A DNA stretch of 64,000 bases, taken from assembly GCA_965215565.1 (NCBI GenBank), contig CBDCDZ010000004.1, positions 160,001 to 224,000 of the forward strand. Direction: 5' to 3'. The notes below the pieces were generated by a model, which was not told the origin of the DNA, did not search any database, and worked only from the letters and a program-made list of their open reading frames with translations. Each line of letters starts with the position of its first letter. The stretch's first letter is position 1. The DNA is from Trueperaceae bacterium. Lineage in GTDB: Bacteria; Deinococcota; Deinococci; Deinococcales; Trueperaceae. Positions 57 to 55,870 of this stretch are shown here, in pieces. The position numbers and the translations under genes are program-made.

Positions 57-183
57 TAGCAGTTCCAAAACATACTGAGACGGATGGGCGCAGGTATCAT
101 CCTAGAACGTGCGTGCTGCACAATATTCTTAAAAGTGAGAGTGTTGCTTCGCATCGCTTCTCTTAATATACGGATACCTGCTA
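57..183 (-). mobile_element. MITE family A copy with a TGCTTCGCA mini-element (about 145-165); one end degenerate
   Basis: TAGCAGTTCCAAAACATACTGAGACGGATG...GATACCTGCTA matches the reverse complement of 5915-6025. Confidence 0.85.
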
Positions 184-5914: not shown

Positions 5915-6025
5915 TAGCAGGTATCATCTGGTCAGAAACACTATCACTTTTTAGAACATCGTTTAGCACGCACATTCTGAGATGATATTTGCGCTCATCC
6001 GTCTCGGTATGTTTTGGAACTGCTA
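5915..6025 (+). mobile_element. MITE family A copy (111 bp, reference empty form)
   Basis: TAGCAGGTATCATCTGGTCAG...GTTTTGGAACTGCTA; terminal inverted repeat TAGCAG/CTGCTA. Confidence 0.9.
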
Positions 6026-7319: not shown

Positions 7320-7576
7320 TAGCAAGTATCATTTGGTTTGAGTGAACGAAGTTATGCGAAGAGACGCTCTCACGATGTAGAACACCGTTGCCTAACGGCA
7401 AACTACGTCATTCGCTTTGCGAAAACTTCGTCCCTACGGGCTTTCAGAAAGCAGCACGCACATTTGAGAATGAAATCCCGCTCTCAGGCGAAGCCGTCCC
7501 GCTAGGCTTTGCCTGAGAGCGGGATGGCTGCGGCTGAGACTTGCGCTATTCCAATCAGTACTTATGTCAATTGCTA
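7320..7576 (+). mobile_element. MITE family A copy expanded to 257 bp by three nested inserts; TA target duplication
   Basis: TA at 7318-7319 and 7577-7578; removing the element and one TA restores the transposase frame AVYVLVDDYL. Confidence 0.92.
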
Positions 7577-17276: not shown

Positions 17277-17539
17277 TAGCAGGTATCATCTGGTCAGCTA
17301 CACCCTCACCAAAGAGAACATCGTTTCCTTTTGCTGCGCAAAAACTACGTAATCGGAAAACTTCGTCCCTGCGGGCTTTCAGACTGCTGCGCAGCTTTCA
17401 GAAATTAGCGCGCACTTCAAGTGATGAAATTCCGCAATGGCAGGGCGGCCTGACCGTAACGCTAGTTCTTCGAACTGAGATCTGCGGAGAAGTGTTGCTT
17501 CGCATGGCTTCACCCAAGCAACGATAAGTGGAAATGCTA
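17277..17539 (+). mobile_element. MITE family A copy expanded to 263 bp by nested mini-elements
   Basis: Collinear with 36433-36543 apart from three inserts, including 17496-17516. Confidence 0.9.
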
Positions 17540-19742: not shown

Positions 19743-19844
19743 ACGCTAAATTCTTGCTAGCGGCTCTGCGCTGTACTCATAAAAATTGCCGCAGGTATCA
19801 TTATGATTTGCGCTCATCCGCGCTGCTTTCCTCTCGGCGCGTCC

Positions 19845-19946
19845 ATGACCAGATGATACCTGCTGTATTCTATGACCAGATGATACCTGCTGTATTCTAT
19901 GACCAGATGATACCTGCTGTATTCTATGACCAGATGATACCTGCTA
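19845..19946. repeat. Tandem array of a 27-bp unit (about 3.8 copies) containing the MITE A terminus
   Basis: ATGACCAGATGATACCTGCTGTATTCT at 19845, 19872 and 19899; partial copy at 19926. Confidence 0.95.
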
Positions 19947-19958
19947 TATGATGACAGC

Positions 19959-24597: not shown

Positions 24598-26595
24598 ATG
24601 CCAAAACCTGCCCCCTGCACACACAAAGTATTCTTACTCCTATCCATTTATACTGCGTTCCTATGCGCCTTGTGCGCAGGAATGATTGGGGCGGCTCAGC
24701 CCGCCGTCCCTGCCCCTCAAGTGCTCGACATGAGCGCGATAGAAAGTGCGTCCGCGACGGTCGGGGTTTCTCTTGAATATCCTACGGTGATCGAATTCGG
24801 CGAGATGAGTATAGAGAGCGTCGAGGCGAGCGAGCGCGGTCAGATTCTTGCGGAGGTCGGCGGTAATACGGTGACTATCCGGGCTAACCGGGAGGAGGTT
24901 GACACCGAATTCGCCGTCAGCCTTATAGGGGGACCGACTGTGCGCTTCACCTTCGTCTCCGACCCCGGTGCCGAGGGTCCAACGCGCTACGTCGTGAGGA
25001 GTGAGCAACCTTCTGTGAGCGCGGCCGAGGAAAGCGCCGAAGCAGAGACGGTAGCAGAGGCAACACAAGCGGAGGCAGCAGAGGCAGAAGCAGAGGCGTC
25101 CGAAGTCGAGGTAGAGGAAGCACAAGCGGAGGAGGCTGAAGTAGCGGCAGAGGAAACACAGGCGGAGGAAACAGAGCCAGAGGCGTCCGAAGTCGAGGCG
25201 GTAGAGGAAGAAACACAAGCGTCGGAAACACAAGCGGAGGAAGCAGCGGAGGCAGAAGAGGCTGAAGTAGAGGCGTCTGAAGCAGAGGCAGAGGAAACAC
25301 AAGTGGAGGCAGAGGCAGAAGTGATAGCGGAGGAGGAAGCGGCAGCGGTGGCAGCAGCAGCGGCGGAGGCGCGAGCGGCGGCAGAGGCGGCGGCAGAAGC
25401 GCGAGCGGCGGCGACGGAGGCGCAAGCGGCGGCGGCGGAAATGAGCCGAGCTGATGGCAGTGGTGATCTCTTGTCACCTTTAGAGGTGGAGGCTTTGCCC
25501 CCCGAACTTGAGTTCAGAACTAGCGCCTACCAGCCTGACCCTGGGTCTATGGTGGTCCAATACGTTCTGACAAACGGTACGCAGAACTTACTCGCTCATG
25601 ACCCTCAACGCCTGCGCATCTACGCTGACGGTGAGACGGTACCTTTTGAGCAGGTGCTGCCCGCAGCAGGTCAGTCTAGGCGTCTCCCGGCTGGCGAGGT
25701 GGAATATGGTGAAATCTTCGTTCCGAATGTTTCCGCGAACGTGAGTGATTTGATACTCGAGTGGGAACTCGTCGAAATAGGACCGGGCATCACCTACCGA
25801 GCAGACAGCAATCTCATTACGTCGCTGAGCGAAGCACCTCTATTTACACCCCGTATAGCCGTCGCTGAGCAGGACGCAGCGACGCCTCCCCAAGCAACCC
25901 CTTCTCAAAGCGCCGAGCCAACGGCTGAACCTGAAGCGCCCGCGGCTGCCCCATCAGCAGCCCCGTCGGACGCGCAACCGACAACCCAAGCCGCAACGCC
26001 GAGCACCGCGGATGAGGCTGAACAGCTTCTTCCGCCCGAGATACTAGCAGAGATACGCAGGCGAGGCTCTGACATCACTGTGATAGGCGGCAGCTTCGAT
26101 GAGCCTGAAATGAACATCGCCGAGGAGGGAGCCGAAGTCACAGGCGTGTCAGAGCTTGGTACCTGGTCTCTTTACACACGCGAGAGAGCCGAAGCGGATG
26201 CCATGGTCGAGGGCGGTGAAGCGTGCATCGACGTAGGCGGTGAAAGCACACTCTTCCAGGTTCAAGATATCGGCTTTGGGTACGCGGGGTTCCCCCTCAC
26301 CAAAGGTAGGACTTACCGCCTTACCTTCGAAGCTTACGCTGACAAGCCCGTCTTCTTCCGCTCGCTCGTGGGGCTCGCCGTGTCACCCTATTCGGAGTCT
26401 TTCGCCCGAGTGGAGGCGCTCAGCACGCAGGAACAGACCTTCTTCTACACGTTCGAGGCGAGGAACGACAGCGACCTCAACCGCGTCGCTTTTCTCTTGG
26501 GCGGCAACCAAGCCTCTTCTTTCCGCATCTGCTTTGACAACATTGTGTTGTCTGAAGCAGGTGAGGTGGCGCAGAACAGGGTATCTGACGAGTAG
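24598..26595 (+). CDS. Secreted multidomain protein with Glu/Ala-rich repeats and a probable C-terminal carbohydrate-binding (CBM4/9-like) domain
   Basis: AAAGGA RBS, signal peptide, EAEA repeats, C-terminal GRTYRLTFEAYA...FYTF...ICFDNIVL. Confidence 0.7.
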   Translation: MPKPAPCTHKVFLLLSIYTAFLCALCAGMIGAAQPAVPAPQVLDMSAIESASATVGVSLEYPTVIEFGEMSIESVEASERGQILAEVGGNTVTIRANREEVDTEFAVSLIGGPTVRFTFVSDPGAEGPTRYVVRSEQPSVSAAEESAEAETVAEATQAEAAEAEAEASEVEVEEAQAEEAEVAAEETQAEETEPEASEVEAVEEETQASETQAEEAAEAEEAEVEASEAEAEETQVEAEAEVIAEEEAAAVAAAAAEARAAAEAAAEARAAATEAQAAAAEMSRADGSGDLLSPLEVEALPPELEFRTSAYQPDPGSMVVQYVLTNGTQNLLAHDPQRLRIYADGETVPFEQVLPAAGQSRRLPAGEVEYGEIFVPNVSANVSDLILEWELVEIGPGITYRADSNLITSLSEAPLFTPRIAVAEQDAATPPQATPSQSAEPTAEPEAPAAAPSAAPSDAQPTTQAATPSTADEAEQLLPPEILAEIRRRGSDITVIGGSFDEPEMNIAEEGAEVTGVSELGTWSLYTRERAEADAMVEGGEACIDVGGESTLFQVQDIGFGYAGFPLTKGRTYRLTFEAYADKPVFFRSLVGLAVSPYSESFARVEALSTQEQTFFYTFEARNDSDLNRVAFLLGGNQASSFRICFDNIVLSEAGEVAQNRVSDE

Positions 26596-26671: not shown

Positions 26672-26804
26672 TAGCAGGTATCATCTGGTCAGCTATACCC
26701 TCACCAAAGAGAACATCGTTCAGCACGCACTTGATTGTGATGATATCTGCGAAGGAGTGTTGCTTCGCATAACTACGTTCAAGCAACGATAAGTGGAACT
26801 GCTA
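26672..26804 (+). mobile_element. MITE family A copy with a single 21-nt insert (26761-26781)
   Basis: Compared with 36433-36543: AGTGT[TGCTTCGCATAACTACGTTCA]AGCAACGATAAGTGG. Confidence 0.92.
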
Positions 26805-36432: not shown

Positions 36433-36543
36433 TAGCAGGTATCATCTGGTCAGCTACACTCTCACTAAAAAGAACATCGCCTAGCACGCACGTTCAGGGA
36501 TGATATCTGCGGAGAAGTGTAGCAACGATAAGTGGAACTGCTA
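36433..36543 (+). mobile_element. MITE family A copy (111 bp, empty form)
   Basis: TAGCAGGTATCATCTGGTCAG...AAGTGGAACTGCTA. Confidence 0.92.
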
Positions 36544-36557
36544 TTTATTCGTAGCAG

Positions 36558-36983
36558 GTTACTTCGTTCCGTCTCCTCTCGAAAGGAGCAGCCTACGCAA
36601 GGCTTTACTTCGCGGAGATAGCTTCGCTCAATCAAAGTCTAGTCTGCAGTCCATTTCAGTATGTTTCGGAACTTCTACCCGTGCAGGCGCACCAGAAACG
36701 CTCCTCTAGTTCATCTTGTGGAAGGCGTTCACATCCGCTACAATAGTTCATGAATTTTACAGATGCAACAGTTACTTCGTTCCGTCTCCTCTCGAAAGGA
36801 GCAGCCTACGCAAGGCTTTACTTCGCGGAGATAGCTTCGCTCAATCAAAGTCTAGTCTGCAGTCCATTTCAGTATGTTTCGGAACTTCTACCCGTGCAGG
36901 CGCACCAGAAACGCTCCTCTAGTTCATCTTGTGGAAGGCGTTCACATCCGCTACAATAGTTCATGAATTTTACAGATGCAACA
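36558..36983. repeat. Direct tandem duplication, 2 x 213 bp
   Basis: 36558-36770 and 36771-36983 appear identical. Confidence 0.95.
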
Positions 36984-37990: not shown

Positions 37991-38189
37991 TAGCAGTTCC
38001 AAAACATACTGAGACGGATGAGCGCTTACGAAGTTTTGCCTCCGGCAAGGGTATCGTCCCTTAGAGTGCGTGCTAGTTACGCAGTTTTCCGCTTACGAAG
38101 TTTTTGCAAAGCAAAAGGAAACATTGTTTTGTGAAGTGAGAGTGTTGCTTCGCAAAACTTCGTACACTCTGACCAGATGATACCTGCTG
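37991..38189 (-). mobile_element. MITE family A copy (199 bp) with four ~21-22-nt mini-elements, one nested
   Basis: Inserts at 38026, 38076 (itself interrupted at 38093) and 38146, relative to 5915-6025. Confidence 0.92.
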
Positions 38190-50339: not shown

Positions 50340-50493
50340 TAGCAGGTACCATCTGGTCAGAGTGTACGTAAGTTTGTCCCGGAGGGAAACTTCGTAAGCG
50401 AAGCAACACTCGCACTTTGTGAAACGATGTCGAGCACGCACTTTAAGGGATGATACTTGCGTTCAATTGTCTCAGTGTGTCGTGGAACTGCTA
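50340..50493 (+). mobile_element. MITE family A copy (154 bp) with two nested mini-elements
   Basis: A TGCTTCGC-type insert (about 50363-50405, minus strand) is itself interrupted by 50376-50397. Confidence 0.9.
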
Positions 50494-55713: not shown

Positions 55714-55870
55714 GCAATCCAGTCGAGCTGGTTATGTGATCCAGTCAAGCTGGTGGTTTTAGCTTCCGCAGGAACGAACGGTCTTGCGAAGCAAACGATT
55801 ACGAAGTTTTCGTAGAAGCGAAACGGTAAGCAACGAGCATAGGTCAGAGCGAAGCTCAAAGCACTATGTG
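55714..55870. repeat. Cluster of GNA-hairpin mini-elements outside any MITE
   Basis: ATCCAGTC(G/A)AGCTGG x2, TTCCGCAGGAA, TTGCGAAGCAA, TTACGAAGTTTTCGTAGAA, GAGCGAAGCTC. Confidence 0.65.

Follow-up and report, generated by a model that had tools for sequence, protein, structure and literature searches.

Insertions in the MITE A copies of the window

The window analysed here is a 64,000-nucleotide stretch (positions 160001–224000 of contig C4) of the source Trueperaceae genome, G000. It contains copies of a host repeat, MITE A, which differ from each other by short inserts at fixed positions. The labels F1–F9 for insert families and A–D for hosts were coined in the present analysis. The features of the window are as follows.

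26672..26804, plus strand: host MITE A copy (subfamily B), one site filled
26761..26781, minus strand (that of the hairpins and their GNA loops): F1 element of 21 nt at MITE position 87/88, exact, directly after AGTGT; an empty counterpart was seen
17277..17539, plus strand: host MITE A copy, three sites filled
17325..17404, minus strand: nest of sister elements, 80 nt (F2 in F2 plus two tandem F5), at MITE position 47
17428..17478, minus strand: nest of a different class, 51 nt (F3 holding a 27-nt F4), near MITE position 70, ends approximate
17496..17516, minus strand: F1 element of 21 nt at MITE position 87/88, exact, directly after AGTGT
37991..38189, minus strand: host MITE A copy, three sites filled
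38026..38048, plus strand: sister element (F2 type), 23 nt, at MITE position 75
38077..38120, plus strand: nest, 44 nt (F2 in F2), at MITE position 47
38146..38166, minus strand: F1 element of 21 nt at position 22/23 of the minus-strand MITE, exact, directly after AGTGT
145..165, minus strand: decayed F1 copy, its 3' part and the adjoining MITE bases altered by a deletion
50363..50405, plus strand: F1 variant of 22 nt at MITE position 22/23, with a nested insert
50377..50397, minus strand: sister element (F2 type), 21 nt, nested in this F1 copy in the opposite orientation
7343..7363, plus strand: F1 variant with the last two bases different, four copies in the genome
36433..36543, plus strand: empty MITE A copy (subfamily B), both F1 targets free
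5915..6025, plus strand: empty MITE A copy (subfamily A)

The original prediction described exact 21-nt inserts at 26761, 17496 and 38146, each after AGTGT and without target duplication. This is confirmed by the empty copy at 36433–36543, in which the same flanks are joined with zero bases duplicated or lost. The copies at 145 and 50363–50405, which had been listed as related, do belong to F1, but the first is decayed and carries a deletion, and the second is a 22-nt variant with a sister insert. The variant at 7343–7363 was missing from that list, which was thus incomplete.

The 9-mer with which F1 starts, TGCTTCGCA, occurs five times in the window against 0.88 expected, and none of 100 shuffles reached five. 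Genome-wide, it is present in 113 copies, compared with 22–55 expected from Markov models; 53 of the 113 are located after AGTGT and 80 after GTGT or GCGT.

The window also contains four tandem copies of the 27-nt left end of MITE A (19838–19949), and comparable arrays of ends are found elsewhere in G000 and in its congener G001. Beside the empty MITE there is an exact 213-nt tandem duplication at 36558–36983, whose start falls within a decayed MITE end containing an F1-type insert. The heptamer tandem repeats at 55719–55822 host F7, a 22-nt hairpin-plus-tail element that itself contains F1-like and F2 inserts. In the second congener, G002, an ISL2-type element is split by the same F7, and three G000 copies of that ISL2-type element are empty. 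A Glu/Ala-rich low-complexity coding repeat with 15-21-36 nt periods is located at 25021–25400.

MITE A and its spectrum of inserts

MITE A has 6-bp inverted ends and a 3-bp target duplication, the two features that define a MITE; the duplication is clear in five of ten filled/empty pairs compared by eye with G001. A 16-nt motif identifies 407 left ends in G000, and 82 of these belong to 109-nt empty cores. Of the 136 longer, filled copies, 134 were aligned to the profile of the empty repeat. The inserts have discrete lengths of 21 (75 inserts), 22 (16), 23 (35), 24 (18) and 25 nt (18), occupy five positions, belong to several families, and additionally form nests of 40–90 nt. F1 is one among several insert families in MITE A, and the predicted length of 21 nt holds as one of these discrete lengths but not as the only one.

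In subfamily B, MITE positions 22 and 88 form, in the folded repeat, the two arms of one internal inverted repeat, and are therefore not independent targets. The two MITE positions on opposite strands named in the original prediction are both used, but in this subfamily they cannot be counted as separate evidence for a target. In subfamily A, the opposite arm contains neither ACRC nor F1.

A partner transposase of MITE A was searched for and not found, and the search for a long, gene-bearing version of F1 or MITE A also returned none. The plasmid collection contains no full-length match to MITE A. One long insert at a MITE site was considered as an autonomous version and rejected, because it is a decayed IS110 (G000:C4:3452616-3453448), positioned between duplicated MITE A segments. 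Seven intact-looking IS110 copies are present elsewhere in G000.

Old MITE A cores are kept at orthologous promoter positions in G000 and G001, for example at G000:C4:2078732 and 4219467. They are approximately 80–90% identical, retain the inner inverted repeat and are located upstream of genes, which may reflect domestication.

Structure of the 21-nt element

The F1 family has about 90 copies in G000. Read on the opposite strand, the element starts with two nucleotides, the first of which is T, followed by a 9-nt hairpin with a 3-bp stem and a GNA loop, a single nucleotide, and a second 9-nt hairpin of the same kind; we refer to this layout as 2+9+1+9. The G(T/A)AG stretch, originally listed in front of a short spacer, is no free-standing tag but the loop of another mini-hairpin.

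Covariation was examined in 87 inserts (31 distinct), which were selected by host context only and thus blind to structure. Pair 4-10 is of the Watson-Crick type in 30 of the 31 distinct inserts (AT in 16, GC in 14), as is pair 5-9 in 30 and pair 14-20 in 27, with AT/GC swaps present, whereas pair 3-11 is so in only 18. None of 5000 shuffles reached the values tested for pairs 3-11, 4-10 and 14-20, a comparison that overstates the signal, since the rows are related. The first loop is G-N-A in 85 of the 87 inserts, with GAA in 71 and GTA in five. Furthermore, a scan for the perfect 2+9+1+9 design, blind to the flanks, retrieved 61 copies from G000 and none from the reversed genome. The base that follows is A in 61 of 61 and the following dinucleotide AC in 60 of 61.

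Nearest-neighbour folding of the three 21-nt inserts of the window was no better than that of shuffled sequences (z from 0.08 to 0.55). Support for the hairpins therefore comes from the covariation and from published thermodynamics. GCGNAGC mini-hairpins are reported to be very stable and nuclease resistant, and nearest-neighbour-type models do not account for this stability, according to the same source (PMC13037366). From its base pairing, F1 is predicted to fold into two tiny hairpins.

Target site and host repeats

A strict search for F1 in G000 yielded 98 hits, with 4 and 5 in controls, and in 89 of the 98 the insert is followed by ACRC on the 3' side of the hairpin strand. The AGTGT of the original prediction is found at the three window copies, but the target itself is this ACRC. 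The hits are divided among MITE position 22 (67), position 88 (20) and other places (11, of which two are MITE A copies with an interrupted left end).

F1 resides in four unrelated host repeats. In addition to MITE A, these are a second MITE with TAGCAG ends; an ISL2-ended MITE, which measures 113 nt when empty and 134 nt with F1; and repeat D, with F1 in 5 of 24 copies. In these three, F1 is placed before ACGC. Empty copies of all four exist, and their 5' flanks are unrelated. A similar stretch of 9–10 bases at the F1 target is shared by four unrelated host repeats (L022, L168, G000:C4:543821 and 1768442).

By a loose rule, 109 of 4420 ACRC sites in repeats are filled. For unique intergenic DNA the figure is 3 of 8861, and for genes, at chance level, it is 3 of 75809. 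ACRC alone is therefore not sufficient. At site 22, none of 31 targets after GAA and 43 of 100 targets after GAG are filled, as tallied by eye.

The preference for repeats, and the location of 89 of the 98 strict hits in MITE A at two sites, would fit a history in which few ancient insertions were multiplied only by MITE transposition and gene conversion between copies, F1 having no mobility of its own. The same holds for one variant that appears to be fixed in a MITE lineage of another genome, G142. However, the flanks follow the host backbone to within 4–5 nt on both sides, the four hosts have no common 5' flank, inserts nest and stack in tandem, and the stems covary, which passive inheritance would not maintain. 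Such passive spread is already largely refuted by the unrelated hosts, and we give it hardly any probability.

The joints were compared with the nearest empty copy in 36 pairs. Positions -6 to -1 of the 5' flank match in every one of the 36 pairs. At position +5 the bases agree with the host backbone apart from two mismatches in the 36 pairs, which leaves room for homology of at most 4 nt. G is found at +3 in six of seven copies of one F1 variant, and at +1 in seven of seven copies of one F2 group; these variant-linked changes of the flank are not predicted by conservative strand transfer. In the F3 class, located at MITE position 70 genome-wide, the adjacent host base is changed in all 34 close filled/empty pairs, and its insertion is thus not conservative. 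F3 often holds the 27-nt F4 insert.

These flanks bear on the main rival to the strand transfer that we favour, in which host repair captures nuclease-resistant oligonucleotides with no dedicated transposase. An Ssn-like nick just 5' of the first hairpin would free the strand, and a few bases of its 3' flank would anneal at a matching ACRC. The double-hairpin flap would escape trimming and be ligated, and the target of a family would be the 3' flank of its donor. The family-specific similarity of targets is one-sided and on the 3' side, the variant-linked changes are at +1 and +3 with none at -6 to -1, and the unrelated F3 class alters the adjacent base, all of which agree with capture. It is also in keeping with the nuclease resistance reported for mini-hairpins (PMC13037366) and with the cutting of ssDNA upstream of hairpins described for Ssn enzymes (PMC11893778). 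Against capture by repair, the 5' joint is exact without homology, and the host backbone is already followed at +5. Ligases should seal such a homology-free 5' joint poorly. We consider capture by host repair rather unlikely.

Probable repeated gain of F1

A tree was built from 217 MITE A backbones, with the neighbouring comparison columns left out. With 57 of the copies filled, the state of site 22 requires 45 steps on this tree, whereas the nearby columns require 4–29; shuffled states need 50.5 steps on average and at least 42. The presence of F1 is scattered over the tree. In 86 close pairs, defined by at most three differences in 106 and at least one filled member, one copy is empty in 67, the inserts are different in 12 and the same in 7. 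One cluster of 11 near-identical MITE copies displays many combinations over four sites. Copy by copy, gains are indistinguishable from precise losses. Sister elements form tandem head-to-tail stacks 5' of a kept ACR target and also nest in each other.

A de novo bubble search was dominated by chance matches in genes, and from it only multi-copy inserts were used. The comparison between species covered 800 kb from G001 and 400 kb from G002. G002 lacks an F1-type 21-nt insert that is present at G000:C4:1750855, and G001 lacks a sister 21-nt insert located at G000:C4:3038099, in an IS1-like pseudogene. Orthologous MITE loci are mostly not common to different species, and within the regions compared there was no clean filled/empty orthologue of F1 at positions 22 or 88. 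Public contigs, which break at these repeats and are therefore uninformative, contained no strain-level 21-nt indel and no bridging empty allele. The IS1-like transposase pseudogene (G000:C4:3037878-3038425) contains one 21-nt and two 42-nt inserts in total, all of which are absent from the G001 copy.

Because filled, empty and variant copies are mixed within close pairs, and three further unrelated hosts contain the element, it is likely that F1 was inserted many separate times. We are highly confident that it is mobile on its own. The view of F1 as a mobile mini-element that consists of GNA hairpins, inserts at specific sites without duplication and parasitises MITEs is thus supported. Confinement to one MITE lineage, lack of a target consensus elsewhere and heterogeneous lengths had been named as grounds for abandoning this view; the inserts occur in several hosts, have a target consensus in unrelated repeats and in other genera, and are of discrete lengths.

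Distribution across genomes

The F1 pattern was detected in 5 of 128 genomes of the family, with 57 matches in G000, 12 in G001, 15 in G002, five in G054 and one in G142, and none in controls. A wider pattern matched 7 of 81 family genomes, and the match in G018 lacks the stems. When the design alone was searched for in 265 genomes of the phylum, counts were clearly above control in G000, G001, G002 and G142, and in G055, where the excess is partly made up of SRM repeats. G142 carries 22 copies of a variant in which the second stem is swapped, and the 13 copies viewed are all positioned before AC in one MITE A lineage. The variant appears to be fixed in this lineage, which indicates that filled MITEs also spread the element by descent.

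In the species-level collection, 41 of 64 parts of which were scanned, the F1 pattern is present at at least 81 loci. Among the matches listed, ACRC comes next in 10 of 10 from Trueperaceae and in 3 of 71 from others, and the three were treated as chance. No conclusion drawn here depends on genome G110. Contig C3 of G000 (23.7 kb) is a near-exact doubling of an 11-kb plasmid and is probably an assembly artefact.

Search for the enzyme

G000 has only one Y1 domain, on the minus strand at G000:C4:3786234-3786551, placed in frame inside a type IIG restriction-methylase. A regular expression for the HUH motif matched 15 of 3925 predicted proteins, and the downstream Tyr motif is present only in this fused domain. 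About 17 kb separate this domain from the nearest F1 copy listed, and copies do not cluster around the rayt gene. The gene (G000:C4:3784707-3788666, L001) is situated outside the window and combines the Y1/RAYT-like HUH domain with peptide repeats derived from palindromes. The palindrome family of the RAYT domain numbers about 130 copies genome-wide.

Searches of G001 and G002 revealed no Y1 gene. G002 still carries palindromes typical of the G000 RAYT, so such genes come and go, and their absence is not decisive. IS200-type ends in G005, G054 and G142, inspected by eye, do not resemble F1. The replication-strand count is 41, 39 or 36 of 92, depending on the origin assumed (p 0.35, 0.17 and 0.047); the lagging-strand bias is weak and varies with the origin chosen, and none is robust. 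Together with the guide layout of IS608 and REP elements, which F1 lacks, these results leave the HUH/Y1 partner of the original prediction unproven, and a classical Y1 protein of the IS200 or RAYT type is unlikely to be the enzyme.

Four other candidates were rejected as partners: DUF559 is encoded in 18 of 81 genomes but not in G000, GxxExxY in 2 of 81 and in no carrier, XisH in 10 of 81, including the three congeners but not G054 or G142, and the four-helix bundle in 17 of 81 but not in G054 or G142. An Ssn (GIY-YIG) gene was detected with one query in 6 of 81 family genomes and in one of the five carriers, G002. In this genome, the Ssn-like gene (L197, G002:C10:214190-214483) has SRM repeats ahead of it. 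None of the seven families Y1, reverse transcriptase, Ssn, DUF559, GxxExxY, XisH and four-helix bundle tracks with the F1 carriers, which agrees with capture by host repair, whereas the presence of an Ssn gene in one of five carriers speaks against it. G000 encodes six tyrosine recombinases.

Reverse transcriptases of the group II intron type are present in the carriers G001 and G054. They would allow movement through RNA, with structured small RNAs cut from MITE transcripts being reverse transcribed into nicks and the 3' flank acting as the primer site, and the similarity of targets is indeed on the side that a primer would use. However, no reverse transcriptase was found in the carriers G000, G002 and G142, and G-N-A triloops are weak in RNA. 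Triloops of this type, whose middle base is free, are a motif of DNA (PMC13037366). An RNA intermediate is very unlikely.

Proposed mechanism and comparison with hairpin-reading systems

RNA movement and passive spread fit poorly; the main alternative to ssDNA strand transfer is capture by host repair. Three features lead us to prefer strand transfer: an exact 5' joint that involves no homology, a target that survives the insertion, and a fold that has been conserved between phyla. With modest confidence, we propose that F1 is a gene-less element that moves as ssDNA by means of a hairpin-reading strand-transfer enzyme acting in trans, and on balance we favour a dedicated ssDNA transferase for this role. 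The GNA strand would be the folded, active strand, and the enzyme would cut it twice, once at its 5' T and once where the second hairpin ends at its foot. The excised piece would then be joined into N^ACRC by phosphotyrosine-type, HUH-like strand transfer. Repeats, in which DNA is exposed in single-stranded or cruciform form and inserts are tolerated, may for that reason be preferred as targets, and filled MITEs would subsequently spread F1 further by their own transposition.

HUH enzymes are known to insert ssDNA precisely and without duplication by reading hairpins (PMC6006769). F1 has in common with IS200/IS605 elements (IS608, ISDra2) and their non-autonomous derivatives the absence of target duplication, a short, one-sided, fixed target that is kept, hairpins at both ends, and, on the non-GNA strand, a target 5' of the insert (PMC6006769). 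In contrast, the hairpins described for IS200/IS605 are subterminal and 20–25 nt long, whereas F1 as a whole has 21 nt, with terminal hairpins of 9 nt, and on the non-GNA strand there is no room 5' of its first hairpin for the guide tetranucleotide that these elements have at each hairpin foot (PMC6006769). Furthermore, the F1 target is constant across stem variants, unlike that of IS200/IS605, and the polarity of IS608 is reversed: on the GNA strand of F1, the target is 3' of the joint. No cognate TnpA with matching ends turned up, and apart from the fused domain of G000 the three congeners have no TnpA.

REP elements mobilised by RAYT (TnpA-REP) are, like F1, short hairpin repeats in non-coding DNA, with a G-N-A-G stretch 5' of the last hairpin, and a RAYT-like domain is present in G000 (PMC6006769, PMC3116915). 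However, the REP tag is GTAG or GTGG, 0–2 nt 5' of a stem of 7–20 bp, whereas the stretch in F1 is mostly GAAG, is itself a hairpin loop and accompanies 3-bp stems (PMC6006769). Additionally, the RAYT domain of G000 has its own palindromic repeat family, which is distinct from F1. With its 9-nt hairpins, no guide position and a target unchanged by the element, F1 lies outside the definitions of IS200/IS605 and REP elements as given in PMC6006769.

Relationship to small dispersed repeats of Nostocaceae

The small dispersed repeats (SDRs) of Nostocaceae, described by Elhai et al. in 2008 (Genome Res 18:1484), are reportedly 21–27 nt long and nested, reside in MITEs and heptamer repeats, and have filled and empty sites. 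If so, their size, nesting, residence in MITEs and heptamer repeats, and filled and empty sites are all seen here too. The system was originally put forward as unfamiliar in Deinococcota. Our literature search, which left most subscription papers outside its reach, found no paper on such elements in Deinococcota, but F1 is nearer to described systems than originally put forward, as it has the layout of 21-mers embedded in HIP1 sites of Nostoc.

SDR5 is 21 nt long, and a 2026 paper gives its function as unknown (PMC13756078). It is inserted precisely, at a fixed position after the third base of HIP1 (PMC4390886), and among HIP1-rich cyanobacteria SDR-like repeats are reported from none outside Nostocaceae (PMC5861425). 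A search for HIP1 interrupted at the SDR5 position in the N. punctiforme plasmid NC_010631 (354,564 bases) gave seven matches at 21 nt and 1–5 at other lengths. This simple HIP1 pattern is weak, so the Nostoc result is carried by the hairpin design: the plasmid contains four perfect 2+9+1+9 copies, against zero in the control, plus two near-perfect ones. The four perfect copies start with T, and the bases after their 3' end are ATCGC in three and ATTGC in one. Judged by their length and position rather than by the published consensus, these HIP1-embedded 21-mers correspond, we infer, to SDR5.

F1 resembles SDR5 in the length of 21 nt (22-nt F1 variants also exist), the precise insertion at a fixed position and the absence of an assigned enzyme, as well as in the double-GNA 2+9+1+9 layout of the HIP1-embedded 21-mers, with T first and A after the 3' end. 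The two differ in that the F1 target is ACRC and not the HIP1 palindrome, the 5' flank of F1 is free, the stem sequences are different, and the hosts are Trueperaceae rather than Nostocaceae. Since its target is not HIP1, F1 is classified as an SDR5-like variant and not as SDR5 itself. Such a variant, with its new target, is recorded here from a second phylum, and on its sequence features it is no new kind of element.

The double-GNA design common to Nostoc and Trueperaceae may serve as substrate for an ssDNA strand-transfer enzyme not described so far, or for a host-repair activity that has gone unrecognised, either of which would read the target 3' of the joint. We put this possibility forward tentatively and with some doubt. 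If true, F1 and SDR5 would be the smallest known mobile DNA, the landing of SDR5 in HIP1 would be explained by only the 3' half of the palindrome being read, and scar-free insertion of a short oligonucleotide at targets of 4–5 bases would be feasible. How elements of 21–27 nt move has been an open question since the Nostoc SDR report of 2008. The second phylum separates the conserved features (length, 5' T, two GNA hairpins and A after the 3' end) from those that are not conserved (stem sequence, 5' flank and palindromic target). Enzyme discovery can thus start from an oligonucleotide bait and mutants that are both defined, and from N. punctiforme as a test host that can be grown in culture.

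Ssn GIY-YIG nucleases and their SRM repeats also have features in common with F1, namely the recognition of ssDNA hairpins with an upstream cut (PMC11893778), and SRM-type repeats in G000, G002 and G055 carry GNA loops resembling F1. However, Ssn is described in PMC11893778 as a nuclease and is not known to have transfer activity, and F1 lacks the SRM motif. In other taxa, the loops of Ssn-associated SRM-type repeats contain F1-like GNA hairpins (L144, L154, L169, L122, L147, L182, L290, L300 and L304), and such loops are a possible origin of the F1 design.
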